From the NCBI GenBank assembly GCA_963727835.1, contig CAVSIB010000030.1, positions 5,127-69,126 of the forward strand: a stretch of DNA of 64,000 nucleotides. Reading direction: 5' to 3'. Below, in pieces: positions 41,975-62,618 of the stretch; the stretch's first letter is position 1, and every line of letters begins with the position of its first letter. This stretch comes from an uncultured delta proteobacterium (GTDB taxonomy: Bacteria; Desulfobacterota; WTBG01; JAGOGO01). The position numbers and the translations under genes are program-made. Below the pieces are notes generated by a model that did no database searches, was not told the origin of the DNA, and was given only the letters and a program-made list of their open reading frames with translations.

Positions 41975-42850
41975 TTAAATGAGCAGAGGGTAATGAGCGC
42001 CGCGACTGTACCCTTCCCTTTGGGCGAGAATATCCAGGTGAAGCGTAGCGATGTTTTCTACATCTAAGGGGACAGGGGTGCCAATGAATTCAATGTCAAC
42101 CGCTTTGAGATATTTTTGGCAGGCTTTACAGACTTCAAGTCGGTATTGTTTTTCGTTCTCGACATAAAGATACGTGACCCCTTCTTCCTCTTCGTTTCCA
42201 CAAAACGGGCACATAAGAAAAGGGAACGGCCATTCTGTGCCACAGTAAACACAAAAAAGATGCCTTGACCATTTTCCCTCCGGGATCGCGGCAATAGGTG
42301 GGGCTTTTCCACAAATAGGGCAATACCCCTTTCCCCAGAGAGTTATATCAATCACTGCTCGTAAATTTTCGGCTAAATATTCGTAAAAAGGTTTTAGGGA
42401 CTCAGTCAAAAGAAAGAAGAGGAGCGTAGGGTCACCCAGTTCCTCTTTTTTCCCCATTGGCGAGGGAATTTCCCCATCCCACATCGCTTTGATGGTCTTT
42501 CCAACATCGAGGTTACCTTTTTTAATAAAGGCGTGTAACTTTCCTGCAGTATCAGGATTTTTTTCGTGGCTTATCTGAAGAAGCGTGCGAAAAAATTTTT
42601 CTAACGTCCCATTATCCAACTCAATAGCGCTCTTATCCAGAACCGGGGATCCTGCTTTGAATTTTGCCTGCACTTCCTGTTCATCAAAAACTATGGGGAG
42701 ACCTTTAAGCGACTGGTAAAACTCCTCTTTGGCAATAAAAATTTTTTCATAAAAATCGAGCAGGTTTCTGTACGCGGGTTTTTCGCGTTTGATTTGTTCC
42801 ATGCGGGCCAATTTCGTTTTCAGGTCACCGGCCATTCCTATTTGTTCCAA
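41975..42850 (-). CDS. fdhE: FdhE-like formate dehydrogenase accessory protein
   Basis: Four CxxC pairs (CPICG, CVYCG, CPFCG, CKACQKY) in FdhE spacing; 291 aa. Confidence 0.75.
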   Translation of the reverse strand: MEQIGMAGDLKTKLARMEQIKREKPAYRNLLDFYEKIFIAKEEFYQSLKGLPIVFDEQEVQAKFKAGSPVLDKSAIELDNGTLEKFFRTLLQISHEKNPDTAGKLHAFIKKGNLDVGKTIKAMWDGEIPSPMGKKEELGDPTLLFFLLTESLKPFYEYLAENLRAVIDITLWGKGYCPICGKAPPIAAIPEGKWSRHLFCVYCGTEWPFPFLMCPFCGNEEEEGVTYLYVENEKQYRLEVCKACQKYLKAVDIEFIGTPVPLDVENIATLHLDILAQREGYSRGAHYPLLI

Positions 42851-44346
42851 TCCCTTAATAGCTGAAGCAGGAGCCGCACACCAAAGCCGCTTGCGCCCTT
42901 TGGTATATAGGGTTTATCTTTTTCATACCAGGTCGGCCCGGCGATATCCATATGGACCCATGGGGTATCGTTCACAAATTTTTTCAGAAACATTCCTCCG
43001 GTAATAGTTCCGGCAGCCCGGGTACCCACATTCTTAAAATCCGCAATATCACTTTTGAGGTAATCAAAGTATTCTTCCCAGAGAGGAAGTTCCCATACCT
43101 TTTCGCCGGTTTTTTCGCCGGCTGATTTAACGGAGTTCAACAAAGAAGCATCGTTTCCCATAATACCGGCAACATAGTCTCCTAACGCGGTTATGCACGC
43201 TCCGGTCAGAGTGGCTAAATCAACAATACCTTGCGGTTTATACCTTTTGGCATACGTCAAGGCATCGGCCAGGATTAATCGTCCTTCCGCGTCCGTGCTG
43301 ATTACTTCAATGGTCTGACCCGACAGAGACGTGAGAACATCTCCGGGTTTATACGCTTTGCCTCCCGGCAGATTTTCCGTGGCCGGAATAATCCCCAGTA
43401 AATTTAAAGGAAGTTTCATTTGGGCTACTGCCTGCATGGTTCCCATCACCACCGCTCCCCCAGCCATATCATCTTTCATTTGTTCCATTTTGTCAGGAGG
43501 CTTAAGAGAAATGCCACCGCTATCAAAGGTAATCCCTTTTCCGATGATGACCAGAGGAGGTCCAAAATTTCGGCTGGCGGTGTATTCTAAAATAATAATC
43601 TTCGCTGGTTCACGGCTTCCTTGAGCAACCGCCAGAAAGGCGCCCATTCCCATTTTCTGAGCCTGTTTTTCGGTAATGACCCGGCACTTTAACTTGTTCT
43701 TCTTGGCAATCGTCTGCGCTTGGTGAGCTAACATAGCGGGCGTCTTTTTATTGGCTGGTAAGGACACCAAATCACGAGCAATATATACGGCTTCCCTGAG
43801 AATAGTCACATGACGCAAGACCATTTCTATTATCTTGGTCCTGTCTTTTTTTTGCGAGACAACCACACACTCATCAACTTCTTTTATTTTTTCCCTTCCC
43901 GTGGTTATCAGGTCCCGGAACTGATACACCCCCAAACCTCCTCCGATTAGAAATGCTTCCAGCAGTTTAGACACTGAAAATCCTTTGGCGTCAAGAAGGT
44001 CTTCGGGGAGATGGATTGTTTTTATTCCTAAATCGCGTACATACTGAAAAGCTTTCCCCCCGGCTCCGCGCATGACATCAAGGTCAAACTTTTCTTTCTT
44101 TCCCAATCCCACCAAAACTATTCTCTTGGCAGATAGCGCTCCTTGGGGATAAAGCAAAAAAGTTTTATATCGTTCCCCAAGAAAATCCCCGCTCGTGAGA
44201 AGATTTTTAATCAATCCTTTCGTGGCACTGTCTATAACATCAAGCGATTTTTGCAATGTCTTCGTATCTTCAAAAACAGGCAGAACCAGCACCTCAGCTT
44301 TTTCAAAAATAATACTGCCAACTCTCGATTTAAACTTTATCGCCAT
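42838..44346 (-). CDS. pepA: Leucyl aminopeptidase (M17)
   Basis: GKGITFDSGG, DMAGGA and STDAEGRLILADAL motifs; 502 aa. Confidence 0.92.
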   Translation of the reverse strand: MAIKFKSRVGSIIFEKAEVLVLPVFEDTKTLQKSLDVIDSATKGLIKNLLTSGDFLGERYKTFLLYPQGALSAKRIVLVGLGKKEKFDLDVMRGAGGKAFQYVRDLGIKTIHLPEDLLDAKGFSVSKLLEAFLIGGGLGVYQFRDLITTGREKIKEVDECVVVSQKKDRTKIIEMVLRHVTILREAVYIARDLVSLPANKKTPAMLAHQAQTIAKKNKLKCRVITEKQAQKMGMGAFLAVAQGSREPAKIIILEYTASRNFGPPLVIIGKGITFDSGGISLKPPDKMEQMKDDMAGGAVVMGTMQAVAQMKLPLNLLGIIPATENLPGGKAYKPGDVLTSLSGQTIEVISTDAEGRLILADALTYAKRYKPQGIVDLATLTGACITALGDYVAGIMGNDASLLNSVKSAGEKTGEKVWELPLWEEYFDYLKSDIADFKNVGTRAAGTITGGMFLKKFVNDTPWVHMDIAGPTWYEKDKPYIPKGASGFGVRLLLQLLRDWNK

Positions 44347-44359
44347 AATTCCTTCCTTT

Positions 44360-45235
44360 TTACAAACCCCGCAAAAATTCTGGTCGCAACTGCGCGGGAT
44401 TTTTTAAAGCGCAATCTATCTCACTAAGGAGCTTTGCTTTATCTTGATTAAGCGTCGCCTTGATGGCAAGATAGTTAGAAGCATGATTACTGCGGAAAAT
44501 ACACTTATCTAAGCGAAAGTGCTCAATCATAACACGAAGCTCATTAAGGATTTCCAACTTGTCCATCATCTCCCAATCCTTCCCCAGACAACGGGAAAAG
44601 TATCGGTTATCATCCTCAAGGATAAGAGTTAAGGCGGAAAGATAGTGAGGATTAATCGCTGAACAGACTCGTGCGGTTTCAAGCGCATGGCGCTCGCTCC
44701 CCTTTTTCCCAGCGAGGCCAAGAATAACGGTTGCTGAAAGCACAAAACCAGCATCAATAGCTTTTTTGGCACTGGTAATCAGTTCTTGCGCCGTTGCTCC
44801 TTTTTTTATTTTGACGAGTAGTTCATCATCGCCCGTTTCAATACCAAAGTACAACATCTGGAGGCCAGCCTTGCGGATCCTTTGGAGGTCTTCTGTTGAC
44901 TTTCCCATAAGATTAGCCGGATTAGCATAAGCGCTCACCCGTTCCAATGCAGGAAACTTTTCATAAAGGAAATTCAAAATCTGGAGCATGTAATCCGTAT
45001 CAATAAACAGCGCATCACCATCCGCAAGGAAAATCCTGTTTATCCCGCCATAAGAAAGCGCTGCCTCGAGGATATCGGCCTTGAGTTCTTCCCAGGGCCG
45101 GATACGAAATTTTTTCTTCCGGTACATGATACAAAAAGCGCACCGGTTGTGGGAACACCCTAAGGTTACCTGGAAGATAAGCGAATACGCTTCACTCGGA
45201 GGACGATATAAGGGCATATCATAATACATAGTCAC
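44360..45235 (-). CDS. Radical SAM protein with non-canonical CX4CX2C spacing
   Basis: QVTLGCSHNRCAFCIMY was checked on the DNA (tgt tcc cac aac cgg tgc gct ttt tgt). TIM-barrel-length protein of 291 aa. Confidence 0.7.
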   Translation of the reverse strand: MTMYYDMPLYRPPSEAYSLIFQVTLGCSHNRCAFCIMYRKKKFRIRPWEELKADILEAALSYGGINRIFLADGDALFIDTDYMLQILNFLYEKFPALERVSAYANPANLMGKSTEDLQRIRKAGLQMLYFGIETGDDELLVKIKKGATAQELITSAKKAIDAGFVLSATVILGLAGKKGSERHALETARVCSAINPHYLSALTLILEDDNRYFSRCLGKDWEMMDKLEILNELRVMIEHFRLDKCIFRSNHASNYLAIKATLNQDKAKLLSEIDCALKNPAQLRPEFLRGL

Positions 45236-50479: not shown

Positions 50480-52450
50480 TTAATTGTCCAGCACCTCTCG
50501 TATTTTAAACAAAATCTCTTCCGGCGAGACGGGTTTACCAATAAAATTTAACCCCTCAAGAATTGCTTGTTCATCAATAATCTCAGCGGAATAACCGCTG
50601 ATAAAAACTGCTTTTATCTCCGGCTTGATTTTTTTTATGGCATCGTAAGCCTCTTTTCCATTCTTTTTAGGCATGATGACATCCAGAAGCAAGAGATGGA
50701 TATCATCCTTGTGTTTTAGAAATTGTTCGATCGCATTTTCTCCATCGCGTGCTTCGAGGACTTTGTACCCAAATTCTTCCAGGATTCCTTTCACTAGGCT
50801 CGCAACTGCCGGATCATCGTCTGCGACAAGTATTGTCTCAGTACCCCTTTTAAGCGGGGGCGAAGCTTTTTCTTCTTGCCTTTCAAATGTCGAATCAATC
50901 AAGGGAAGATAAATATTAAAGGTTGTTCCTTTACCAACCTCACTTTTAACGTCAATATACCCGTCATGTTGTTTCACAATGCCATAGACCATGGAAAGAC
51001 CAAGACCAGTTCCTTTCCCTACCTCCTTCGTGGTAAAAAAGGGGTCGAAAATTTTTTCCTTAGTCTTCTCATCTATCCCAATACCTGTATCGGTAACCGA
51101 GATAAGGGCATAACCACCTGAGTGTCTGGGTTGTGAGGTGACTACACTATGTGGGAGCAACTGTTCCGCCCCGGTCGTAATAGTTAACACACCACCTTTG
51201 GGCATGGCATCCTTGGCATTGGTAACGAGATTCATGAAGATCTGATCTAACTGCCCTTGGTCAGCCATGATAATCAAATCTTTATTGCACAGTTCGATCT
51301 TAAACTCTATGTCTTCTTTAATGAGTCTCCCGAGGAGCTTTTTTAAGTTGCTGATACTTTCATTAAGATTTAATGACCTCGGAGCACTCAACTGTTTTCT
51401 GCTAAACGCAAGAAGGTTCTTGGTCAGACTTGCTGCCCTTTGGGCTGAGTCAAGTATTTGTGCAACATGAGAACTGATCGGGCTTCCTTGTGGAATTTTC
51501 ATTTGAATAAGCCCCCCAAAACCCATTATCGCCGTGAGGATATTATTAAAGTCATGGGCTATGCCGCCGGCCAGAGTTCCGATTGCTTCCATTTTTTGGG
51601 CATGCCAGAGCTGTTCTTGGAGTTGTTCTTTTTCTGCTTCCCTTTTTTTTAACGCATCAAGCATAGTGTTAAATGCGTCAGCGAGCTTGCCGATTTCATC
51701 CCCGGTCTCAACCCCCACATCACTGACCACGCCTCCAATACCGAGAGTGTACACCCCTGCAGTCAATCGTTTAAGGGGAATTGTTATCTGCCTGGTCATA
51801 ATAAATATAAGTAAAGAACCGATGCTCCAAAAAACAAAACCTATTAAAATACTTTTTAATAACAGGATATTGAGCTGTTTTTTAAGTTCGACTTTATCAA
51901 TGGTTAATTTTGCAAAACCAGTGATAAGTTCCTTTTTTTTCGAAGGGCGCTCTCCCAGAACCAGATATTCTTCAGAAGCATATCCTGCGACTGTGATGAC
52001 CGGCGACCATAATTCCATAGAGTCCTTGCCCTTAAGCAAACACAGAGGCTGATCCTGCCGGAAACTTGCAATTACGTTACCCGGGACTTTTTCATTTTCG
52101 TCTGCTGATGTTTGCTGATCCGTGACTTTATATTTCTTTAGCTTTTTAAACAAATTTTTTTGCAGATTAAATACAGAAACCTCTAAGACGCTTTCCTGTT
52201 GAAAAATTCCTTCAACCGCATCTCTGAGCAGGTCTTTATTTTCTGAAAGAACGCCGAGCCTCACGCTGTAAGCAAGGACCCCGACAAGTAATTCTGAGTT
52301 TTTCATCAGAGTATTGGTGAGCGCTTTTCTTTGCTGATAGTAAAAAAAGATCGTAAAAACAGAGGAAATGATGAAGAAAAAAATTGTAAAGGTAACGAAT
52401 ACCTTAATGCTGAATTTTTCACGCAAGAGCTTAAGAAAATTTAAATTCAT
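50480..52450 (-). CDS. Hybrid sensor histidine kinase/response regulator (TM-sensor-TM-HAMP-HisKA-HATPase-REC)
   Basis: H-box [11 protein letters not shown], the G-box DTGIGI/GTGLGL, and a C-terminal receiver ILVADDD...LLLDVIMP; 656 aa. Confidence 0.9.
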
Positions 52451-52459
52451 CTTGTGCCT

Positions 52460-53380
52460 TTACTTCAGAATCTTAGCTTTTTCTAAGACCTTCTCATCAA
52501 TAGTGATTCCCAACTTTTTTGCTATCTTGAGGTTAATTAATATTACTGCCTTCCTGGCATCAATGCGCTGAACATCCCTCTTACCCCCATTGGAAAGGAT
52601 TGCTTTAGCCATTTCACCGGCCTGATTGCCTATATCAAAGGGGTCTACGCTGATTGACATTAATGCACCGAGCTCAACATATTTTACTGAAAAGGAGATG
52701 ATCGGTTTCTGATTTTCGAGCAAGAAGAGAAGCAGAAAATCGATGGTCTCAGGAGAATACACGGTGATATCCGGGATCATCCAGAAGGCATCTATCTTGT
52801 TTCGAAGATTCTTTAAGGCGGAAGGGACCTCTTTTGTGCTCTGAACTTTTTCTTTTATCAAAGAGATACCCATGGTATTAGCCGCATGCACCGCCTCTTT
52901 TATAAAATTGCCGGTCCTATCCGGGTTATATAAGGTACCGATCGTTTTTGTTGCTGGTAAAACCTCTAGGAGGGTAGCGACCTGCCTTTCGGGAGATAGA
53001 GTCATACTGATACCGCTGATATTCTTTTCACCGAAAGTAATTGCCTGAGGATTGAGAACCATCATATAAATAATCGGAATGTCCTCGATCTCTTTTATTT
53101 CTGTGAGCGCATCCATCCCGATGGCGAGAATAAGTTCCGGTTTGTTGAATTGAATTAACTGGGAAGGGTTGATTTTCTCCTGGTCGGAAAGAACTACTTT
53201 CGTAATCTCAGCATCACAGACACTTTTAAAACCGGCAAGCGCTTCCTCATATGGTGCAACGCTAAGGCTCTGGACAACGAGTACCCTCTGCCCAGCTTCT
53301 GCCAAACCGTTGCAACATACTAATATTAAAAAGGAAGTAAAGATTTTTGTAATCACGAATTTCTGTTGCGATACCGTCAT
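52460..53380 (-). CDS. ABC-transporter-type periplasmic substrate-binding protein (ABC_sub_bind family), co-oriented with the kinase
   Basis: A 306-aa ORF with a signal peptide and family-typical ...LNLKIAKKLGITI... at the C-terminus. It lies 10 nt upstream of the kinase gene. Confidence 0.7.
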   Translation of the reverse strand: MTVSQQKFVITKIFTSFLILVCCNGLAEAGQRVLVVQSLSVAPYEEALAGFKSVCDAEITKVVLSDQEKINPSQLIQFNKPELILAIGMDALTEIKEIEDIPIIYMMVLNPQAITFGEKNISGISMTLSPERQVATLLEVLPATKTIGTLYNPDRTGNFIKEAVHAANTMGISLIKEKVQSTKEVPSALKNLRNKIDAFWMIPDITVYSPETIDFLLLFLLENQKPIISFSVKYVELGALMSISVDPFDIGNQAGEMAKAILSNGGKRDVQRIDARKAVILINLKIAKKLGITIDEKVLEKAKILK

Positions 53381-53591
53381 TGAGTCAAAAATCTTTTAAG
53401 TGTCTCTTTGTTTACCCCCCCTTTCGGGAAAAGGGGGCAAAGGGGGGTTCCAGCCTGTCCGGCGATGGCTGCTCATGCTGTTTTATAAAGTTTAGCGTGG
53501 TATTATACATATTTTATGAGTTTTTCAACAGCCTGATAATTCGCAACGCCCTTTTTTACAATAATTTTTTGTAAAAAAACAAAAAAATTGC

Positions 53592-53625
53592 TTGCATTAA
53601 AAAAAATTGGTGATAAAAATATCCA
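53592..53625 (+). promoter_or_regulatory. Candidate promoter with an overlapping Fur-box-like sequence upstream of the TonB-dependent receptor
   Basis: TTGCAT (53592-53597), a 16-nt spacer, then TAAAAA. TGATAAAAATATCCA (53611-53625) matches TGATAATnATTATCA at 11 of 14 specified positions. Confidence 0.3.
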
Positions 53626-53770
53626 ATAAAAACTATTGGGTTAAAAACAAATATTTACACGATAGTTAAAGAGTAGCGCATAAGCAATAAATAAAATTAG
53701 ACATATCGTATCATAGGTTGGGTTAAAAAATAAATAAAATTTTTCACATTAAAAAATAATATTTATTATA

Positions 53771-55726
53771 ATGAATTTTAGGAACCGAGACATTCTAATT
53801 GTTTGTTTTTTTGTGTTCTTTTCTACCCTCCCCCTCTTTCTTTTCTGTCCACCCTCCTTTGCCCAGTCAGAGGAGGAAATGCAAACTCTCCAGATGTTTT
53901 ATAAGGAAAAAGACCTGGTAGTATCCGCTACCAGAAACCTCGAACCAATCTCTCAGGTTGCCGAAAATATCACGGTTATTACTGCCAAAGACATCGAGCA
54001 TATGAATGCCCATACTGTGGCTGATGTCCTGAACCGTGTCCCGGGTCTCTTCATTAATTATAATCAGGACTTCGGCGCCCCCTCGTTGCTTCAAATCCAG
54101 GGCTCGGAGCCGAGGCATGTCCTCGTTGTGGTTGACGGCATCAAGTGGAATTCTCTGGCAAGCGGGGCGGCTGAAACAAACGCTATTCCGGTAGATATCA
54201 TCGAACGCATAGAGATAATCAAAGGCCCTGCCTCATCATCCTGGGGTTCAGCTTTAGGAGGGGTGGTAAACATCATCACCAAGGACGCAGGAAACACCAG
54301 CCGGCCTTCAGGCTCTCTAAGCGCTTCGTATGGGGAAAGAGAAACCCAGGATTATAGGGCTCAGGTTGCGGGGTTAGCCGGGACAGTAGGGTATTATCTT
54401 TATGCAGGGCACCAGGAATCTGACGGTTTCAGAGAATCGCGGGATTTTGAGACTTACAGCCTTTACTCCAAGGTTCATCTCCCGGTCACAAGCAAGGTAA
54501 CTACTGACTTTACTCTCGGGTACAGTGAACCGGACCAGAAGGTTGGGGATTTTCCGGGCGAGGATATTACCCAACGAGCAGCAAATCCGACTTTTTTTGC
54601 AACTGCGTCCCTTGATGCCTCCCTTTCCAAAGAGTTAAGCTTTGCAGCATCCTTTCACGAATTCAAGCAAAGATTTTCCGAGTGGTTCAATTCCCTCGGG
54701 CTTTACGGGCTTCCTTTTGATCCTCCCGGAGCATTGTATGAGCATGAGGTTTATGATGAGGAAACCACGGGAGGGGATGCAAAGTTTACCTGGGCTCATG
54801 GGATCCACACCGCAGTTCTTGGAGGAGAATTTGATCGCGGCACGCTCGACCAGACGATCAAGGCCGGGACTTTACTTCAATTATATGGCTTTCCAGCAAT
54901 TGCGACTACCAGCCCGGGCATTGACCGGTGGGCAGTATATGCCAATGACACCATTGTCATTGACCGGTGGTCCATCACCCCGGGGGTCAGGTATGACCGA
55001 AACAACATTACCGGCTCATTTGTCAGTCCAAGCCTTGGCATAACCTACCAGGTTTGGCGAGATTCTGTTTTACGCGCTTCAGTGACGCGTGGTTTTACCA
55101 TCCCTCCTTTATCCTGGACGTCCGGGGGGGGGTTAACTCTTCTTCCCAACCCAAGTCTAAACCCGGAAAAAATCATGTCCTACCAGTGTGGCGGGGAAAC
55201 CGCGGTGCTCAAGTACTTCTGGTTAAAGGCGACCTTGTTCCGGCATGAGGTGGAAGATACCTTAAGCCCTAACTATGAACCACCACCATCCCCATATTAC
55301 ATCATTGTCAATGGCAAAAAGACCAGGAGACAGGGCGGAGAAATTGAACTGCAAACCGTCCCGGTTTATAATTTTTATTTTGTCGGCGGATATTCTTACG
55401 TCCATTATTCCCCTCCCAGCGAATCTACCGCCACCAAAGACTCCTATTCCTATTCTCTCGGTTTCAGATACGATGACAATAGATCTTTCCGGGGGGAACT
55501 TTTTGGCCATTATGTGTGGTGGGACCTTGATCCCAGTTTTATGGCAAAATACCATGCTTTTATCTGGGACCTGAACCTTACCAAGAAAATCTTCCTCCAG
55601 GAGAAGACCTCATCTGAGCTTTTCTTTACTGCCCACAACCTTTTTAACGGCGCTCAGTATTTTTCTGTGGAAAGCGAAAACCCCCGACGGTGGGTAGAGG
55701 CCGGAATAAGAATTAAATTTAAATAA
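53771..55726 (+). CDS. TonB-dependent outer-membrane receptor
   Basis: Signal peptide, plug domain ITVITAKDIEHMNAHTVADVLNRVPGL...VVDGI, a long beta-barrel, and a C-terminal aromatic-rich strand; 651 aa. Confidence 0.9.
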   Translation: MNFRNRDILIVCFFVFFSTLPLFLFCPPSFAQSEEEMQTLQMFYKEKDLVVSATRNLEPISQVAENITVITAKDIEHMNAHTVADVLNRVPGLFINYNQDFGAPSLLQIQGSEPRHVLVVVDGIKWNSLASGAAETNAIPVDIIERIEIIKGPASSSWGSALGGVVNIITKDAGNTSRPSGSLSASYGERETQDYRAQVAGLAGTVGYYLYAGHQESDGFRESRDFETYSLYSKVHLPVTSKVTTDFTLGYSEPDQKVGDFPGEDITQRAANPTFFATASLDASLSKELSFAASFHEFKQRFSEWFNSLGLYGLPFDPPGALYEHEVYDEETTGGDAKFTWAHGIHTAVLGGEFDRGTLDQTIKAGTLLQLYGFPAIATTSPGIDRWAVYANDTIVIDRWSITPGVRYDRNNITGSFVSPSLGITYQVWRDSVLRASVTRGFTIPPLSWTSGGGLTLLPNPSLNPEKIMSYQCGGETAVLKYFWLKATLFRHEVEDTLSPNYEPPPSPYYIIVNGKKTRRQGGEIELQTVPVYNFYFVGGYSYVHYSPPSESTATKDSYSYSLGFRYDDNRSFRGELFGHYVWWDLDPSFMAKYHAFIWDLNLTKKIFLQEKTSSELFFTAHNLFNGAQYFSVESENPRRWVEAGIRIKFK

Positions 55727-56060
55727 ACAAAAACGCCTCAATTAATTAGGCAATGGTTAACCAAGATGATGGTTAATTGTTTTCTGCGAAATCGTTTTCA
55801 CCCGAAATGGCCGGGACAAAGCCGAAACCCCCAGATTCTTTCCTACAACTTAACCAGGCTTAGCCTTGTTATCCACTCAACTGTTGATCATCCCCTATTG
55901 AGTGATTCTTCGGTGTCATTTCTTAGACAAGGCTGACGCAATTTCATCTTTCAGCAGATTGCCACGAATCCTTTGGGTTCTCGCAATGACAAAAGAAATA
56001 AGGTTAATCGTGTAAAAGTATGGATGAAAATTTAGCATAAGCAAGGTGAACTCCCCCATT

Positions 56061-56085
56061 GCCCCCTCTTTTCTAAAGAGGGGGC
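56061..56085. repeat. Perfect 11-bp-stem hairpin (GCCCCCTCTTT-tct-AAAGAGGGGGC), member of a local poly-C/poly-G hairpin family
   Basis: Read directly from the sequence. Related C-run/G-run hairpins occur at 53417-53437, 57641-57672 and 57781-57810. Confidence 0.7.
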
Positions 56086-56123
56086 GAAAACATTAGCATG
56101 CTTAGTAGCCGATCGGAATGTTT

Positions 56124-56152
56124 CTGACAGGTAAATTTTTTAATTCGATAAA
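56124..56152 (+). promoter_or_regulatory. Candidate promoter for the precursor array
   Basis: CTGACA (56124-56129), a 17-nt spacer, then GATAAA (56147-56152). The -35-like element exists only in front of copy 1. Confidence 0.3.
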
Positions 56153-56201
56153 AGTTAATCCTTTATATATTTGTAACCTTTTATTACCAAGGAGGTACGT
56201 T

Positions 56202-56306
56202 ATGAAAGAAGAAAGAATCATTATCATTGACGAAGGTATTGATGAAGTTAACCCGGATGGGTGGCAGGCGTGCTGCTGGGGACCTTTGTTTGCCTTCAGA
56301 GGCTAA
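56202..56306 (+). CDS. RiPP precursor peptide candidate, copy 1 (34 aa: MKEERIIIIDEGIDEVNPDGWQACCWGPLFAFRG)
   Basis: ATG lies 6 nt after AAGGAGG. It has an acidic leader-like N-terminus and a Cys/Trp/Phe-rich C-terminus, and sits upstream of a radical SAM/SPASM gene. Confidence 0.8.
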   Translation: MKEERIIIIDEGIDEVNPDGWQACCWGPLFAFRG

Positions 56307-56367
56307 TGAACCGATAAAAGTTAATCCTTTATATATTTGTAACCTTTTATTACCAAGGAGGTACGTT

Positions 56368-56472
56368 ATGAAAGAAGAAAGAATCATTATCATTGACGAA
56401 GGTATTGATGAAGTTAACCCGGATGGGTGGCAGGCGTGCTGCTGGGGACCTTTGTTTGCCTTCAGAGGCTAA
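56368..56472 (+). CDS. RiPP precursor peptide candidate, copy 2 (identical)
   Basis: Identical unit shifted by 166 bp, with its own AAGGAGG. Confidence 0.8.
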   Translation: MKEERIIIIDEGIDEVNPDGWQACCWGPLFAFRG

Positions 56473-56533
56473 TGAACCGATAAAAGTTAATCCTTTATAT
56501 ATTTGTAACCTTTTATTACCAAGGAGGTACGTT

Positions 56534-56638
56534 ATGAAAGAAGAAAGAATCATTATCATTGACGAAGGTATTGATGAAGTTAACCCGGATGGGTGGCAGG
56601 CGTGCTGCTGGGGACCTTTGTTTGCCTTCAGAGGCTAA
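56534..56638 (+). CDS. RiPP precursor peptide candidate, copy 3 (identical)
   Basis: Identical unit shifted by 332 bp, with its own AAGGAGG. Confidence 0.8.
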   Translation: MKEERIIIIDEGIDEVNPDGWQACCWGPLFAFRG

Positions 56639-56699
56639 TGAACCGATAAAAGTTAATCCTTTATATATTTGTAACCTTTTATTACCAAGGAGGTACGTT

Positions 56700-56804
56700 A
56701 TGAAAGAAGAAAGAATCATTATCATTGACGAAGGTATTGATGAAGTTAACCCGGATGGGTGGCAGGCGTGCTGCTGGGGACCTTTGTTTGCCTTCAGAGG
56801 CTAA
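56700..56804 (+). CDS. RiPP precursor peptide candidate, copy 4 (identical)
   Basis: Identical unit with its own AAGGAGG. Confidence 0.8.
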   Translation: MKEERIIIIDEGIDEVNPDGWQACCWGPLFAFRG

Positions 56805-56865
56805 TGAACCGATAAAAGTTAATCCTTTATATATTTGTAACCTTTTATTACCAAGGAGGTACGTT

Positions 56866-56970
56866 ATGAAAGAAGAAAGAATCATTATCATTGACGAAGG
56901 TATTGATGAAGTTAACCCGGATGGGTGGCAGGCGTGCTGCTGGGGACCTTTGTTTGCCTTCAGAGGCTAA
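56866..56970 (+). CDS. RiPP precursor peptide candidate, copy 5 (identical)
   Basis: Identical unit with its own AAGGAGG. Confidence 0.8.
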   Translation: MKEERIIIIDEGIDEVNPDGWQACCWGPLFAFRG

Positions 56971-57031
56971 TGAACCGATAAAAGTTAATCCTTTATATAT
57001 TTGTAACCTTTTATTACCAAGGAGGTACGTT

Positions 57032-57136
57032 ATGAAAGAAGAAAGAATCATTATCATTGACGAAGGTATTGATGAAGTTAACCCGGATGGGTGGCAGGCG
57101 TGCTGCTGGGGACCTTTGTTTGCCTTCAGAGGCTAA
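57032..57136 (+). CDS. RiPP precursor peptide candidate, copy 6 (identical)
   Basis: Identical unit with its own AAGGAGG. Confidence 0.8.
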   Translation: MKEERIIIIDEGIDEVNPDGWQACCWGPLFAFRG

Positions 57137-57197
57137 TGAACCGATAAAAGTTAATCCTTTATATATTTGTAACCTTTTATTACCAAGGAGGTACGTT

Positions 57198-57302
57198 ATG
57201 AAAGAAGAAAGAATCATTATCATTGACGAAGGTATTGATGAAGTTAACCCGGATGGGTGGCAGGCGTGCTGCTGGGGACCTTTGTTTGCCTTCAGAGGCT
57301 AA
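57198..57302 (+). CDS. RiPP precursor peptide candidate, copy 7 (identical)
   Basis: Identical unit with its own AAGGAGG. Confidence 0.8.
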   Translation: MKEERIIIIDEGIDEVNPDGWQACCWGPLFAFRG

Positions 57303-57363
57303 TGAACCGATAAAAGTTAATCCTTTATATATTTGTAACCTTTTATTACCAAGGAGGTACGTT

Positions 57364-57468
57364 ATGAAAGAAGAAAGAATCATTATCATTGACGAAGGTA
57401 TTGATGAAGTTAACCCGGATGGGTGGCAGGCGTGCTGCTGGGGACCTTTGTTTGCCTTCAGAGGCTAA
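57364..57468 (+). CDS. RiPP precursor peptide candidate, copy 8 (identical)
   Basis: Identical unit with its own AAGGAGG. Confidence 0.8.
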   Translation: MKEERIIIIDEGIDEVNPDGWQACCWGPLFAFRG

Positions 57469-57529
57469 TGAACCGATAAAAGTTAATCCTTTATATATTT
57501 GTAACCTTTTATTACCAAGGAGGTACGTT

Positions 57530-57634
57530 ATGAAAGAAGAAAGAATCATTATCATTGACGAAGGTATTGATGAAGTTAACCCGGATGGGTGGCAGGCGTG
57601 CTGCTGGGGACCTTTGTTTGCCTTCAGAGGCTAA
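57530..57634 (+). CDS. RiPP precursor peptide candidate, copy 9 (identical)
   Basis: Identical unit with its own AAGGAGG. ATG at 57530 was checked on the sequence. Confidence 0.8.
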   Translation: MKEERIIIIDEGIDEVNPDGWQACCWGPLFAFRG

Positions 57635-57640
57635 TGAACC

Positions 57641-57682
57641 GAAAGGGGGGTTATACTTAGTTCCCCCTCTTTTTCTTTTTTA
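57641..57682 (+). terminator. Candidate intrinsic terminator/attenuator between the precursor array and the maturase gene
   Basis: A G-run (57645-57650) pairs with a C-run (57663-57667), flanked by A/T pairs, then TTTTTCTTTTTT. The loop is rather large (about 12 nt). Confidence 0.45.
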
Positions 57683-57729
57683 AAAATCATGGTTCATCGT
57701 GTAAAAACGCAGGTGAAAGGCAAGGAGTA

Positions 57730-57759
57730 TTGATTTACCAAATGCAGACATCATATAAA
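57730..57759 (+). promoter_or_regulatory. Candidate internal promoter for the radical SAM gene
   Basis: TTGATT (57730-57735), an 18-nt spacer, then TATAAA (57754-57759), about 135 nt upstream of ATG 57894. Confidence 0.3.
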
Positions 57760-57893
57760 GTAGAAAACAAGCTGGAACTACCCTGCCCCCCCTTTTTTTG
57801 AAAAGAGGGAGTTGGGGTAGTTAACCAAGCAATGGCATCGTGAGTTAAGAAAAAATTTGATTGCGACGAAAAGTTTTATTTACAGGAGGTGAA

Positions 57894-59186
57894 ATGCAGC
57901 TTTCTCACTATCTCAAAATATACCCCTACGAGGAAAAACCGGGGCATCTTTTGCTTTTTTCTACCAAAAAAAGTTCCGTCATTGTCATTAAGGAAGAGAC
58001 CTTTCAGGCAATAGAACAAGCTACTCTTTCCCCTTCGGATGAGGCTTTGTTATTCAAACACGGGGTGATTGTGCCGGACCGGGAAGAAGAAAAGCGGAAT
58101 ATGTTCGGGCTGTTGGATACGAAAAATACGAGGAATCCGGCCTTGAACAGTATGGTAGTTCTCAATCTGGACTGCAACTTTGCCTGTCTTTACTGTTATG
58201 AAGGTGACATGAAGGGAAATCGCTATATGTCAGATGAGACTGCTGCCCTCCTGATAGATTTAATTAAAAAGAACTTCACGGGAGAAAAGAAAAAACTGCT
58301 TATAGACTTTTATGGCGGGGAGCCCCTCCTGAGCTTAGGATTAATTAAATCAATTTCCCGTGAGTTGAGTGCCTTTACTCAGGGAAAAGGAGGTTCCTTT
58401 AATTTCACGCTGGTCAGTAATGGTGCGCTCTTTAAAAAGCAGGTAGCAGAAGAGCTTGTTCCTTTAGGGCTGGAAAGGATTAAGATTACCCTCGATGGAC
58501 CGGCTGAGGTTCATAACCAATACCGGCCTTTTAAGTCTGGAGCCGGAAGCTTTAATACCTTAATAAGAAATATCAAGGAGACCTGTGACCTGGTAAAAAT
58601 CAGCATCGGAGGAAATTTTGAAAGCCACAACTATGAACAATTTGTATCCCTCCTCGATTTTCTGATTAAGGAAGGGCTCACACCGGAGAAGATTAGTGGT
58701 ATTAAGTTCGACCCGGTTTCAAAGCGGCCAGAGGGCGATATTTCACCTGCTGACTATAAAGGCGGCTGCATGTCCATGGACGAGCCTTGGCTTATTAAGG
58801 CCTCGGAAATTTTGCGGGAAGAGATACTCAAAAGAGGCTATAACACTCCCAAAATTGCGCCAATTTTTTGTATGGTTGACAACAAAAGCTCTTTTGTGGT
58901 CAACTTCGATGGGGTCATTTATAAGTGCCCGGCCTTTATCGGCAAGGAAGGGTTCGCGGTAGGCAATGTTCAAAACGGAATTGACGATTACACGAATTCT
59001 TATAAGCTTGGCCTTTGGAAAACCAATGACGAATGTGCTGAATGTGTTTACCTGCCCCTCTGCTTTGGAGGCTGCCGATATACGAAATTTATCCAGAAAG
59101 GTAATATAGATACCTTAGACTGCCGCAAAGATTATCTTGATGCTACCCTCGAGACTTTCATTAAACAGGAGGTAAAGTTTAGGTAG
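57894..59186 (+). CDS. Radical SAM/SPASM-domain peptide maturase with an N-terminal RRE-like (PqqD-like) region
   Basis: ATG at 57894 lies after GGAGG (the ORF track starts at TTG 57861). About 90 aa precede CNFACLYC (CX3CX2C). GGEPLL is present. The C-terminus carries C-X13-G-X4-C (CMVDNKSSFVVNFDGVIYKC), then CAECVYLPLCFGGC (CX2CX5CX3C), then a later Cys (LDCRKD), which together form the full SPASM signature. Confidence 0.9.
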   Translation: MQLSHYLKIYPYEEKPGHLLLFSTKKSSVIVIKEETFQAIEQATLSPSDEALLFKHGVIVPDREEEKRNMFGLLDTKNTRNPALNSMVVLNLDCNFACLYCYEGDMKGNRYMSDETAALLIDLIKKNFTGEKKKLLIDFYGGEPLLSLGLIKSISRELSAFTQGKGGSFNFTLVSNGALFKKQVAEELVPLGLERIKITLDGPAEVHNQYRPFKSGAGSFNTLIRNIKETCDLVKISIGGNFESHNYEQFVSLLDFLIKEGLTPEKISGIKFDPVSKRPEGDISPADYKGGCMSMDEPWLIKASEILREEILKRGYNTPKIAPIFCMVDNKSSFVVNFDGVIYKCPAFIGKEGFAVGNVQNGIDDYTNSYKLGLWKTNDECAECVYLPLCFGGCRYTKFIQKGNIDTLDCRKDYLDATLETFIKQEVKFR

Positions 59187-59228
59187 GGAGCAGAAGACAG
59201 GAGGCAGATGGAAAGAGGGTGACTCTAA

Positions 59229-59450
59229 AAATGTCATTCCTGCAAAAGCAGAAATCTAGAACCAATCGAAATTACTGGACTCTCCCGAGTCAAGTTTGGG
59301 AGAGTAACAGATTGGGAATTATTAGACGTTCTCTTGATTCTTGCACGAGATCTCGGTTATAGTGAGACAAATGATTTAATGCTCCAGGTGGAGGAAGTGA
59401 GTAAACTTCTTGATGCCTATGCGAAAGCTATTCTGAATTCTGACTCCTGA
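59229..59450 (+). pseudogene. Start-less fragment resembling the C-terminus of a four-helix-bundle (23S rRNA intervening-sequence-type) protein
   Basis: The frame is open from 59229 with no start codon: ...DWELLDVLLILARDLGYSETNDLMLQVEEVSKLLDAYAKAILNSDS*. It is preceded by a degenerate gtcattcctgcaaaagcagaaatc-type hairpin element. Confidence 0.4.
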
Positions 59451-59473
59451 CGTCTGACGTCTAAATTAGTAGT

Positions 59474-60754
59474 ATGAAATTTATTGCTGATTTCCACATT
59501 CATTCCCATCTTTCCCGGGCTACCAGCCGTGAGATGAACCTTGAGAATATCTATAAGTGGGCTCAACTCAAAGGGGTAACTGTGGTGGGGACTGGAGATT
59601 TTACCAATCCCCAATGGTTTAAAGAACTCCGCGAAAAACTTGAGCCTTCTGAACCCGGCCTCTTTGTTTTAAAGCCACAGTATCGACATGCTATTGATGA
59701 GGAGATTCCTGAGTCCTGCCGAGCATTGGTGAGATTTATTCTGTCGGTAGAAATTAGCAGCATTTACAAAAAATACGAAAAGACACGTAAAGTTCATAAC
59801 CTCATCTTCTTCCCTGACCTTCGTTCTGTTTCCCGTTTAAATGCCATGCTCACAAAGGTAGGCAACCTCTCATCGGATGGAAGACCCATCCTGGGGCTGG
59901 ACAGTAAAGAGTTATTGAGAATGGCTCTTGATGCCTCTCACGAGACATATTTTGTGCCCGCCCACATCTGGACTCCTCACTTCTCGGTCTTGGGCGCAAA
60001 CAGCGGCTTTGACTCTCTTGAAGAATGCTTTGAAGAGTTAACGCCGTTGATCCACGCCGTAGAAACCGGACTGTCGTCTGATCCCCCTATGAATTGGAGG
60101 CTTTCCGGCCTGGATAACGTAACACTCATCTCTAACTCCGATGCCCATTCTCCTAATCGCATCGGCCGAGAGGCGAATATTTTTTCCGCCGAGCTTTCTT
60201 ATTTTTCTATTCTCGATGCGCTCAACAATCCAGTAAAAGGCGAGTTTTTAGGAACTATCGAATTTTTTCCCGAAGAAGGAAAGTACCACTTTGATGGTCA
60301 CCGCACTTGTGGAGAGCGGCTCTCGCCCGCGGAAACCATCAGACATGGGGGGATTTGTCCAAAGTGCGGGAAAAAAGTTACTGTGGGAGTTATGCACCGG
60401 GTTACCGAATTGGCGGATCGTCCCTTAGGCTTTGTGCCTGATGGAAAACCTACTTTTAAAAGCCTCGTCGGACTCACGGGGGTGATCAGTGAAATTTATG
60501 AAGTGGGGGGAAAAAGTAAAAAAGCCCAGAATGAATATTTACGGCTCCTGAGGCTTCTGGGAAATGAGTTATTTATTCTTATGGACTGCCCTCTGCCTAC
60601 CCTTAAAAACGCCGGTCTTTCCCTCCTTCCCGAGGCGATCAATAACGTGCGGAAAGGTGAGGTAAGCATTCTGCCTGGCTACGACGGAGAATACGGGAAG
60701 GTGAGAGTCTTTAAGGAGAAAGAGAAAAACTCAAAACAGCTGAAACTCTTTTGA
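59474..60754 (+). CDS. EndoQ-like PHP-domain nuclease (TIGR00375-type) with a C-terminal zinc ribbon
   Basis: MKFIADFHIHSHLSRATS (PHP HxH), ...NSDAHSP..., and HRTCGERL...ICPKCGKKVTVGVMHRV; 426 aa. Confidence 0.7.
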   Translation: MKFIADFHIHSHLSRATSREMNLENIYKWAQLKGVTVVGTGDFTNPQWFKELREKLEPSEPGLFVLKPQYRHAIDEEIPESCRALVRFILSVEISSIYKKYEKTRKVHNLIFFPDLRSVSRLNAMLTKVGNLSSDGRPILGLDSKELLRMALDASHETYFVPAHIWTPHFSVLGANSGFDSLEECFEELTPLIHAVETGLSSDPPMNWRLSGLDNVTLISNSDAHSPNRIGREANIFSAELSYFSILDALNNPVKGEFLGTIEFFPEEGKYHFDGHRTCGERLSPAETIRHGGICPKCGKKVTVGVMHRVTELADRPLGFVPDGKPTFKSLVGLTGVISEIYEVGGKSKKAQNEYLRLLRLLGNELFILMDCPLPTLKNAGLSLLPEAINNVRKGEVSILPGYDGEYGKVRVFKEKEKNSKQLKLF

Positions 60755-60755
60755 A

Positions 60756-62618
60756 ATGCCCCTCGATTTAAGCCTTCTGAATTCTTCTCAGCGTGAGGCG
60801 GTCACAGCTCCAGATGGTCCTTCACTGATCATCGCCGGTCCTGGAACCGGTAAAACTCTGACACTTGCCTATCGTATCGCCTATCTCATCTCCGCATTGG
60901 GAATCAACCCGGAAAAAATTTTGGCAGTAACCTTTACCACCAAAGCCGCCCAGGAGATGAAGGAGAAACTCACTAAAATCTTGCCTTCTGATTCACCCCT
61001 TACCCAGTACCTTGCTCACCTTACGGTCAGCACTCTACATGCGCTCGGCCTGTCTTTCTTACGACAGCACGGTGAGAAGGTCGGCCTGTTGCCAGATTTT
61101 CAAATACTTTCCGAATCAGAACAGGTGCAGCTGGTAAAAGAAATTCTCTCTCAGCTTATGCCTCAAGAATCACTTAACCGGGCTTTAAAATGGGTGCGAA
61201 GAATTTCCGAACACAAAAATCTTTTTGGCGATACGCCCATGGGTTGTGATCTTCAGTTGAGTCATGCTCAGGAGATATTCTCTGCATACGAGAAAAAGCT
61301 GTTGGAACGTAATCGGATAGACTTTGATGATTTAATCCTCAAACCACTCATGCTGTTGCAGGAGTTCCCTGAGGTGCGAGAAGACTACCAAAACCGGTTT
61401 AAGTATATTCTCGTAGATGAATACCAAGATCTCAATAACCCCCAGTACTTGTTTCTTAAAAAACTCTGCGGTCCGAAAACCAGTGCTTGGATTATTGGTG
61501 ATGCGGATCAGGCTATTTATGCTTTCCGGGGAGCTAATGTAGAATATTTTTTGACGTTCCAGCAGGACAATCCCCAAGCCCGACGTATTTATTTAGAAAG
61601 AAACTATCGTTCCTCTGAACCTATCCTTGCCGGTGCTTTAGCAGTGATAAAAAACAACACCAATCGTCTCCCGAACAATCTCTTCCCCTCAAATCCAGAC
61701 GGTTCGCCTATCTATCTCTTTCACGCCTCTGACCCCCGAGCTGAAGCTCGCTTTATAGTTAAAGAGATCGAAAAACTGGTCGGAGGAACCCGGATGGAAT
61801 CTCATTATGAAGAATCAGAGATGTTCGGATTCAGCGATATTGCTATCCTCTATCGCCTTCACCATCTCTCCCTTCCTTTTTCGGAAGCGCTTCAGGAATC
61901 AGGTTTCCCCTATCAGATTGTGGGAGGTCATTCCAATAATGTTGACTCTATCTCCGGGTATTTAATCCCCTTTCTGAAAGTGGTACTTAACCCTCATGAT
62001 GACCTTTCTTTTCGGGCTATCGCGCCTCACATAGATAAACACTCTGATTCTCGCGCCATGTTCCTTTCACTCATTGCCCGGTATCAGAGGGAAATTAGCA
62101 CCGTAAGCCTTGAGGCGCTGATTAAAAATATTGTTCAGGAAATGAAGATAAAAGAAAAAGATAGGTTCGAATGGCTCACCCTTGTTGAACCATTCCAGGA
62201 TGGTAGTGCTGACAAGCAGCTTCCCCATTTCTTGGAGTACATTTCGCTCTTAAAAGAGGGAGAGACTTATAACCCCAAAGCGGAAGCAGTCACACTCATG
62301 ACTGTTCATGCAGCCAAGGGTTTGGAATTCCCGGTGGTATTCATAGTGGCTCTGGAATCAGGGGTTTTCCCCTGTACCGAATTTGGAGAAGAGCCATCTG
62401 ATAAAGAAGAGGAAAGACGGCTTTTTTACGTGGGCATGACCAGAGCTCAACAAAGGCTCTACCTTTCCTTTGCCAAAGAAAGGTTTCTTTTTGGCGAAAA
62501 CCGCAAGGAACCGCCTTCACCCTTTATCTCGGAAATTCCTCAGAAAACGATCGAGAACATATCTGATCCCAGAAAGCCATCAAGACCAAAAGTCAAACAG
62601 CGCACCCTGTTTTCTTGA
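60756..62618 (+). CDS. UvrD/Rep/PcrA-family superfamily-1 helicase (short, 620 aa)
   Basis: AGPGTGKT (motif I), ILVDEYQDLN (II), TVHAAKGLEFPVVF (V) and FYVGMTRAQQRL (VI). It starts 2 nt after the preceding stop. Confidence 0.88.
   Translation: MPLDLSLLNSSQREAVTAPDGPSLIIAGPGTGKTLTLAYRIAYLISALGINPEKILAVTFTTKAAQEMKEKLTKILPSDSPLTQYLAHLTVSTLHALGLSFLRQHGEKVGLLPDFQILSESEQVQLVKEILSQLMPQESLNRALKWVRRISEHKNLFGDTPMGCDLQLSHAQEIFSAYEKKLLERNRIDFDDLILKPLMLLQEFPEVREDYQNRFKYILVDEYQDLNNPQYLFLKKLCGPKTSAWIIGDADQAIYAFRGANVEYFLTFQQDNPQARRIYLERNYRSSEPILAGALAVIKNNTNRLPNNLFPSNPDGSPIYLFHASDPRAEARFIVKEIEKLVGGTRMESHYEESEMFGFSDIAILYRLHHLSLPFSEALQESGFPYQIVGGHSNNVDSISGYLIPFLKVVLNPHDDLSFRAIAPHIDKHSDSRAMFLSLIARYQREISTVSLEALIKNIVQEMKIKEKDRFEWLTLVEPFQDGSADKQLPHFLEYISLLKEGETYNPKAEAVTLMTVHAAKGLEFPVVFIVALESGVFPCTEFGEEPSDKEEERRLFYVGMTRAQQRLYLSFAKERFLFGENRKEPPSPFISEIPQKTIENISDPRKPSRPKVKQRTLFS

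Follow-up and report, generated by a model that had tools for sequence, protein, structure and literature searches.

A tandem array of precursor genes beside a radical SAM/SPASM gene

The window, a stretch of 64,000 nucleotides from an uncultured delta proteobacterium (assembly GCA_963727835.1, contig CAVSIB010000030.1, positions 5,127 to 69,126, forward strand), carries a short open reading frame (ORF) at 56202–56306 that very probably encodes a genuine precursor peptide of the radical S-adenosylmethionine (SAM) system next to it. The precursor and its maturase comprise the following features, in window coordinates or peptide numbering.

56202–56306, + strand: precursor peptide gene, copy 1, recognised from its translation, ribosome-binding site (RBS), family alignment and hidden Markov model (HMM)
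56146–57642, + strand: tandem array of nine 166-bp units, each with an RBS and one precursor gene
57645–57676, + strand: terminator-like G+C hairpin with a T-run (consensus match only), directly 3′ of the last precursor copy
57894–59186, + strand: radical SAM/SPASM peptide maturase, 430 amino acids, recognised from TIGR04280, cluster motifs and similarity to CteB
Peptide residues ~4–14, leader motif; 15–23, variable spacer; 24–25, invariant Cys pair; 26–34, tail

The ORF translates as MKEERIIIIDEGIDEVNPDGWQACCWGPLFAFRG followed by a stop, a peptide of 34 amino acids. Seven acidic and two basic residues lie among residues 1–20, and residues 21–34 contain W21, C24-C25, W26, G27-P28, F30 and F32; sequence and composition are therefore as the initial annotation described them, with all Cys, Trp, Phe and Gly-Pro within the last 14 residues. 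An AGGAGG site at 56190–56195 leaves 6 nt between the RBS and the ATG.

This ORF is the first copy in a 166-bp tandem unit repeated 9.0 times with 100% matches. Each of the nine units encodes the same peptide, starting at 56202, 56368, 56534, 56700, 56866, 57032, 57198, 57364 and 57530, and each retains the AGGAGG site. The units are identical across the whole 166 bp, non-coding spacers included. The array ends 252 nt before the maturase gene, which lies on the same strand, and the hairpin between precursor and maturase genes is, from its sequence, a possible attenuator. A promoter scan found no sigma-70-like site upstream of the array, and an Rfam scan of 53000–60000 returned no RNA family.

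We also noted a palindrome with G/C runs, CCCCC(T)CTTT ... AAAGAGGGGG, that has four copies between the genes of the locus (53414–53448, 56061–56085, 57645–57666 and 57776–57822). One of these copies coincides with the terminator-like hairpin after the array, and the recurring palindrome may be a dispersed element of the REP-like kind.

The maturase is a geopeptide-type radical SAM/SPASM enzyme

The maturase gene is preceded by its own AGGAGG site. Against a cutoff of 400 bits, its product reaches 578.7 with NCBIfam TIGR04280 (E 7.3e-174; residues 1–429 of 430), the model named ‘geopeptide radical SAM maturase’. NCBI gives homologous enzymes the same name, and the enzyme family counts more than 2500 homologs at E ≤ 1e-30. 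The next-best NCBIfam families are CefB (192 bits), TIGR04463 (175), Clo7bot (151) and PapB (141), followed by SCIFF (110), CcpM (92) and QhpD (90); most of these act on Cys-rich peptides or are thioether formers. Cyclophane- and ether-forming families score lower (DynA 78, YhhB 62 bits), as does anSME (73 bits).

The radical SAM motif C94x3C98x2C101 and the seven-Cys SPASM motif (C326x13Gx4C345, C381x2C384x5C390x3C394 and C410) are both present. These motifs, together with C231 and C292, are invariant in 13 homologs of 62–86% identity. CteB is the nearest solved structure both by sequence (E 3.7e-21, ~21% identity) and by full-length fold (Foldseek E 1.6e-14). TigE and anSME rank after it in the fold comparison, and anSME appears among both the sequence and the structural matches.

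When the N-terminal 88 amino acids were modelled alone with AlphaFold2, they formed a β3-α3 domain with a pLDDT of 81. The six best PDB matches of this domain are crystal structures of stand-alone recognition elements (RREs) of ribosomally synthesised and post-translationally modified peptide (RiPP) pathways in complex with leader peptides, namely TbiB1 and a lasso B1 protein; next in rank are the N-termini of TigE and CteB. The Pfam search gave no PqqD match in this region. On the strength of the predicted fold, residues ~1–80 likely form an RRE-like leader-binding domain.

An invariant Cys pair defines the precursor family

Relatives of the maturase were collected by scanning one genome per species, which gave at least 79 loci at 42–88% identity to the window enzyme. 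Among the matches listed, the loci belong mostly to Desulfobacterales/Thermodesulfobacteriota, Syntrophales and Nitrospirota, and none is from Geobacter. The complete ORM2a genome is among the loci, with a maturase 86% identical to that of the window. Wherever the flanking DNA suffices, the locus has a single short ORF of this type adjacent to the maturase, almost always directly upstream. L050 (8236–8421) and L055 (5194–5343) are exceptions, with the precursor on the downstream side of the maturase. Two further loci, L011 and L013, have no upstream receptor gene and encode peptides with extra Cys (…GCDTENCWPRCCCWGP…).

An alignment of 73 such peptides, each adjoining a homologous maturase, was built from the 79 genomes and gives the consensus M-x8-E-I-x-V-L-D-x-G-x-D-x9-C-C-x-G-x3-P-x-R. 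Only M1, C24 and C25 are invariant, and I6 and G12 are conserved at ≥ 90%. The leader motif shared by the family is E-I-(I/V)-V-(L/I)-D-x-G-x-D, of which the window form is RIIIIDEGID; the N-terminal RIIIID strand singled out earlier is thus part of a family-wide motif. The tail after the Cys pair has 8 amino acids in 37 of the 73 peptides and 9 in 18. Position CC+6 is Pro in 51 and Ala in 13, CC+7 is Phe, Ile, Val, Leu or Tyr in 62, and CC+8 is Arg in 48; the corresponding residues of the window peptide are A31-F32-R33.

Aromatic residues follow no such pattern. Trp stands at CC+1 in 14 peptides and at CC−3 in 5; 47 tails have no Trp, and 18 have no Trp, Phe or Tyr. Aromatic-free tails such as ...CCDSTAGAVV, ...CCSTTTAPIR and ...CCKGASAPVR adjoin orthologous maturases. 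Polar tail positions are equally unconserved: Asp or Glu occurs in 6 of the 73 tails and Asn or Gln in 9. Within the window’s own clade, W21 is Phe in L081, whose maturase is 96% identical, and Ala in L001, L082 and L083, a substitution found where maturase identity is 87–88%; W26 is Ala in L001 and L083.

Codon changes within the clade follow the same division of the peptide. The window and ORM2a (L002) differ by 8 synonymous and 6 non-synonymous changes; the latter all lie outside residues 24–34. Compared with L082, 11 of the 12 non-synonymous changes lie within residues 9–23. Non-synonymous changes within the clade thus concentrate at residues 5–23, with the CC tail conserved, and residues 13–23 are the fastest-evolving part of the peptide.

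To judge from this pattern, the functional core is the Cys pair with its P/A-hydrophobic-R tail, and the Trp and Phe residues are a clade-specific decoration and not the catalytic target. The leader/core design proposed in the initial annotation holds in outline, with a conserved N-terminal motif, a spacer and a C-terminal module; the segment W-x-x-C-C-W-G-P-L-F-A-F does not hold as a unit, since only CC is present in 73 of 73. A leader/core boundary at G20/W21 finds no support either, as it falls inside the most variable segment. The likeness between NPDGW and the KGDGW of streptide, which had also been pointed out, is incidental because W21 is not conserved, being Phe or Ala in the nearest relatives.

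The similarity of the window copies to the family also exceeds chance by a wide margin. When an HMM was made from 70 family peptides encoded elsewhere, leaving out the window’s own clade, it recovered all nine window copies with E ~1e-11 from 1876 six-frame segments, the runner-up having E 0.047. With 73 homologs beside orthologous maturases, a shared leader motif and an invariant CC, the assignment of the ORF as RiPP precursor of the adjacent radical SAM/SPASM enzyme, made in the initial annotation, is upheld.

Current annotation misses the peptides of this family. The exact window peptide does not occur in a collection of 15 billion proteins, where its relatives are named ‘hypothetical protein’. 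A peptide-profile search of a set of 5.8 billion proteins gave 40 hits, none of them named, and the window peptide has no Pfam match. Its sole NCBIfam match, as borne out by a search of the kind suggested earlier, is weak: TIGR04229, ‘geopeptide’, at 13.4 bits (E 0.053; peptide I8–G27 against profile positions 3–20 of 22).

The earlier remark that the peptide was not recognised as a member of a named precursor family therefore needs qualifying: a named family exists (TIGR04280/TIGR04229), and the peptide itself falls below the TIGR04229 cutoff. The window system resembles the geopeptide system in that the maturase scores above its cutoff, the peptide is encoded next to a TIGR04280 maturase and the TIGR04229 alignment runs from the leader motif through CC. 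It differs in the sub-cutoff peptide score and in the tandem precursors of its clade (up to 10 copies, against almost always one elsewhere). The curated TIGR04229 model is, by these profile comparisons, much narrower than the peptide family found here.

Geopeptide is a computationally named RiPP family, and the window system is a further member of it and not a new kind. A literature search on geopeptide and TIGR04280 found no paper, product, chemistry or function. Searches with the leader motif, with radical SAM/SPASM combined with a TonB receptor or kinase, and with radical SAM RiPPs combined with Desulfobacter found nothing relevant. What the present analysis adds to the database label is a CC-centred precursor signature, the conserved association with receptor and sensor genes, and a lineage-specific, 9–10-fold amplification of the precursor. 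The signature is concrete: a leader EIxVLDxGxD, the invariant CC and a P/A-hydrophobic-R tail. For mutation, the residues of first interest are the Cys pair and the leader motif rather than Trp and Phe.

Precursor copy number varies within the lineage

Multi-copy precursor arrays are specific to the lineage of the window; almost all loci outside its clade have a single precursor copy. Within the clade the copies are distributed as follows.

Window: 9 copies
L081: ~10 units with a 157-bp period and 97% identity, 8 intact ORFs
L001: 3 copies and 1 frameshifted
L082: 2 copies
L084: 2 copies
L083: 1 copy
ORM2a (L002): 1 copy

The L081 array (L081 2610–4168) is independent of the window assembly, and large precursor arrays are therefore real. 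The identity of the window units, spacers included, and the differing period in L081 suggest recent amplification or ongoing homogenisation. Frameshifted or fused copies occur in the arrays of relatives (L001 5044–5145, ...TPRQGCAARDRYFAFRG; L081 2804–2965 and 3745–3891) and are either decaying copies or sequencing errors of long-read assemblies.

A receptor and sensor cassette accompanies the maturase

Upstream of the array, the window carries three further genes of the system.

53771–55726, + strand: TonB-dependent outer-membrane receptor with Plug and β-barrel domains, immediately upstream of the array
52460–53380, − strand: periplasmic solute-binding protein, PF04392 (ABC_sub_bind), with a signal-peptide-like N-terminus
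50480–52450, − strand: hybrid sensor histidine kinase with two transmembrane segments, HAMP, HisKA, HATPase_c and receiver domains

The kinase gene begins 10 nt after the binding-protein gene, and the two hydrophobic segments near the N-terminus of the kinase flank a periplasmic loop of ~160 amino acids. Clustering of all neighbours of the 79 loci showed that this cassette is conserved. The TonB-dependent receptor (TBDR) is the immediate upstream same-strand neighbour in 55 of 60 loci, and in 36 of 46 a divergent pair of solute-binding protein (SBP) and histidine kinase (HK) genes precedes the receptor in the order HK< SBP< TBDR>. Genes for a major facilitator superfamily (MFS) transporter occur in 25 loci; of 66 loci, 18 have such a gene in the first downstream position.

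Characterised structures of PF04392 proteins show binding of L-Trp, L-Tyr or L-Phe (PMC10443332). In the window, no gene for an ATP-binding cassette (ABC) permease or ATPase lies beside the PF04392 gene, so a sensing role together with the kinase is the simplest reading. Taken together, the cassette suggests that the peptide is secreted and then either re-imported or sensed. To our knowledge, radical SAM RiPPs are not usually linked so tightly to a TonB receptor and a binding-protein/kinase pair. From this link, either signalling by the peptide or the acquisition of metal is predicted for strict anaerobes, among them relatives of ORM2a, whose lineage degrades benzene.

The receptor itself gives weak NCBIfam matches (70–82 bits; cutoffs 700–850) to the PCPU, CU, FCYXU and PUIUD receptor types, families whose names are taken from U-containing motifs.

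Proposed maturation and function

We favour, with moderate confidence, an overall explanation in which the array encodes the RiPP precursor of a geopeptide maturase, the chemistry is centred on Cys and the product is secreted and served by a receptor and a sensor. Its parts are not equally firm. Cys-centred chemistry is probable, the Cys-based option of the initial annotation being the one that the family data favour through the invariant CC. An extracellular role through the receptor and sensor is a little more plausible than its opposite, and the assignment of the chemistry specifically to a thioether stands slightly short of an even chance.

In the proposed mechanism, the N-terminal motif E4-R-I-I-I-I-D-E-G-I-D14 would be the recognition sequence and would dock as a β-strand on the RRE-like domain of the maturase. 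The variable spacer (15–23) could then deliver the C-terminal segment to the active site, where the C24-C25 pair would be the site of radical chemistry. One or two intramolecular thioethers may form between the Cys sulfurs and carbons of the 8–10-residue tail, whose consensus is x5-P/A-hydrophobic-R (here WGPLFAFRG), and the outcome would resemble the CteB/PapB/SCIFF group. A thioether onto the tail is the most likely chemistry because of the affinity of the maturase to CteB, PapB and SCIFF and because tail length is fixed.

The mature peptide is presumed to be exported, leader removal and export both being assumptions of the scheme. The co-encoded TonB-dependent receptor would recognise it on the cell surface, and the PF04392 protein, coupled with the hybrid histidine kinase, would do so in the periplasm. 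From export and recognition by the receptor and the binding-protein/kinase pair, the product would act as a secreted signal or a metal-carrying peptide.

A broader proposal, which we consider rather doubtful, is that these loci encode a new extracellular RiPP of anaerobes (Desulfobacterota, Nitrospirota) in which a single radical SAM enzyme acts on the invariant Cys-Cys pair to form a unit that is crosslinked or binds metal, the product having its own receptor and sensor. If the product does have its own TonB-dependent receptor and binding-protein/kinase sensor, it would be either an autoinducer peptide sensed by its own producer or a metallophore of anaerobes, and the 9–10-fold amplification of the precursor would serve to raise output.

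Several observations weigh against the favoured explanation. On the side of the peptide, the score of 13.4 bits lies below the curated TIGR04229 cutoff of 30 bits, and none of 10 sampled relatives reaches that cutoff either (seven score 7.7–16.7 bits and three give no match). The tail offers no conserved acceptor side chain, Asp or Glu being confined to 6 of 73, so a ranthipeptide-type link is not indicated, and a sactionine (Cα) link is one possibility only.

On the side of the enzyme, the full-length AlphaFold model is moderate to mediocre (pLDDT 62.7), with low confidence in the SPASM part, and the RRE fold matches are weak (Foldseek E 0.02–0.3 and TM-score ~0.38 for the six best; E 0.02–0.7 with TigE and CteB included). 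The window has no exporter gene, with no MFS gene after the maturase, and the cassette encodes no protease. The count of nine copies rests on the source assembly: a short-read Logan contig with an identical maturase (L080) stops 281 nt upstream of the maturase, at the edge of the array.

Alternative explanations

The alternative closest to the favoured one keeps the chemistry on Cys and does without a thioether: the Cys would be oxidised, to a thio-oxazole as by SbtM or to formylglycine as by anSME, or the pair would become a metal-binding unit of a metallophore. We regard this as unlikely, although much of the evidence accommodates it. CC is the only invariant feature of the core and no acceptor residue is conserved. 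SbtM, a radical SAM/SPASM enzyme of overlapping taxa, is a precedent for other Cys chemistry; it is limited to Geobacter and Desulfobacteria and converts Cys to a thio(seleno)oxazole, losing 4 Da (PMC9204691). The recurrence of anSME among the structural and sequence matches of the maturase fits as well.

A metallophore would also suit the conserved cassette of receptor, binding protein and MFS transporter, whose operon logic would then parallel that of methanobactin (TonB-dependent importer, periplasmic binding protein and exporter), and many gene copies suit a product that is used stoichiometrically. However, thioether-forming families outscore anSME (73 bits), no SbtM model is among the best 25 NCBIfam matches of the maturase, and the conserved tail length and P/A-hydrophobic-R pattern are easier to explain by a tail crosslink or by recognition. 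The binding protein, moreover, is paired with a kinase and not with an ABC importer.

Crosslinks of the C-C or C-O-C type at W21, W26, F30 or F32, as in streptide, darobactin or the triceptides, had been put forward as a second option, and the aromatic-rich composition of the window peptide around its Gly-Pro turn speaks for them. Such reactions are known from SPASM enzymes, and DynA (78 bits) and YhhB (62 bits) do match weakly, but families acting on Cys-rich peptides or forming thioethers lie far above both. As family chemistry these crosslinks are highly improbable, Trp and Phe not being conserved: 47 of 73 tails have no Trp and 18 no aromatic residue at all, W21 is already Phe at 96% maturase identity and Ala at 87–88%, W26 is Ala in L001 and L083, and there is no conserved Lys partner.

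That the small ORFs are not functional at all, and lie by chance in a repeat that is non-coding, regulatory or a product of faulty assembly, is scarcely credible. The 100% identity of the nine units down to their spacers would fit it, as would the end of the short-read assembly of the same sequence at the array and the lack of any gene call for this very peptide among 15 billion proteins. Against this stand homologous ORFs with an invariant CC at the same position in 70+ loci of several phyla, the leave-clade-out HMM score (E ~1e-11), a synonymous excess in the tail that indicates purifying selection, a strong RBS in every copy and an independent contig with a ~10-copy array of different period.

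Comparison with known systems

Among characterised systems, CteB/CteA (SCIFF type, PDB 5wgg/5why) and PapB share with the window system a radical SAM barrel, a SPASM domain carrying motifs for two auxiliary clusters and essential Cys residues in the substrates; their RRE-like N-terminus is likely to have a counterpart in the window enzyme. The window peptide differs in its single adjacent Cys pair, against six spaced Cys or CX3D/E repeats, and its family has no conserved Thr, Asp or Glu acceptor. The donor Cys typical of sactipeptides and ranthipeptides is conserved (CC in 73 of 73); no Asp, Glu, Asn or Thr acceptor at fixed spacing, as is typical of ranthipeptides, is conserved among the 73 tails. 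The receptor and kinase cassette was found only for the window family, and we know of no such cassette in SCIFF or PapB systems.

The SbtM system is likewise a radical SAM/SPASM enzyme of overlapping taxa that acts on Cys (or Sec) of a short peptide; its target motif is GG(U/C)G, whereas that of the window family is CC.

In methanobactin operons, the gene for a short ribosomal peptide with Cys is accompanied by those for a TonB-dependent receptor, a periplasmic binding protein and an exporter. The layout of the window family is similar, its Cys peptide being encoded with a receptor, a binding protein and, in relatives, an exporter. The cassette contains no enzyme of the MbnB/MbnC type, only the kinase, the PF04392 protein, the receptor and the radical SAM enzyme. 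As in LuxP/LuxQ, the partner of the binding protein is a hybrid kinase with a periplasmic loop, but the LuxQ match is generic (118 bits against a cutoff of 1200).

Streptide (StrA/StrB), darobactin and the triceptides also derive from short precursors of radical SAM/SPASM enzymes, and the ‘DGW’ and aromatic-rich core of the window peptide resemble them superficially. The aromatic and Lys residues that those systems require are not conserved in the window family. The 73 peptides contain neither the conserved Lys and Trp partners of streptide nor the conserved aromatic in a three-residue motif of darobactin and the triceptides, 18 of 73 tails being free of Trp, Phe and Tyr.

Other genes around the locus

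Genes further out in the window are of the housekeeping kind. Pol X/PHP, ADH, DeoC, M17 peptidase, second radical SAM, UvrD and methyltransferase genes were considered as parts of the system and rejected, as they are not conserved with the cassette. The second small radical SAM protein (291 amino acids; 44360–45235, − strand) adjoins an M17 leucyl aminopeptidase gene (42838–44346, − strand) ~11 kb upstream of the array, and this pair does not accompany the cassette elsewhere. Downstream of the maturase lie a gene for a TIGR00375-like protein (59474–60754, + strand; 156.7 bits, cutoff 326.6) and then one for a UvrD-family helicase (60756–62618, + strand), a pair that recurs downstream of the maturase in L080–L084 and is absent from the wider family.

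The short gap between the maturase and the next gene holds an ORF of 38 amino acids, MILARDLGYSETNDLMLQVEEVSKLLDAYAKAILNSDS (59334–59450, + strand), which might be a candidate remnant of a PF05635 gene (23S rRNA intervening-sequence protein). Full-length PF05635 genes occur in two cassette loci: in L082 (413–781) upstream, between the binding-protein and receptor genes, and in L084 (7874–8242) two genes downstream of the maturase.

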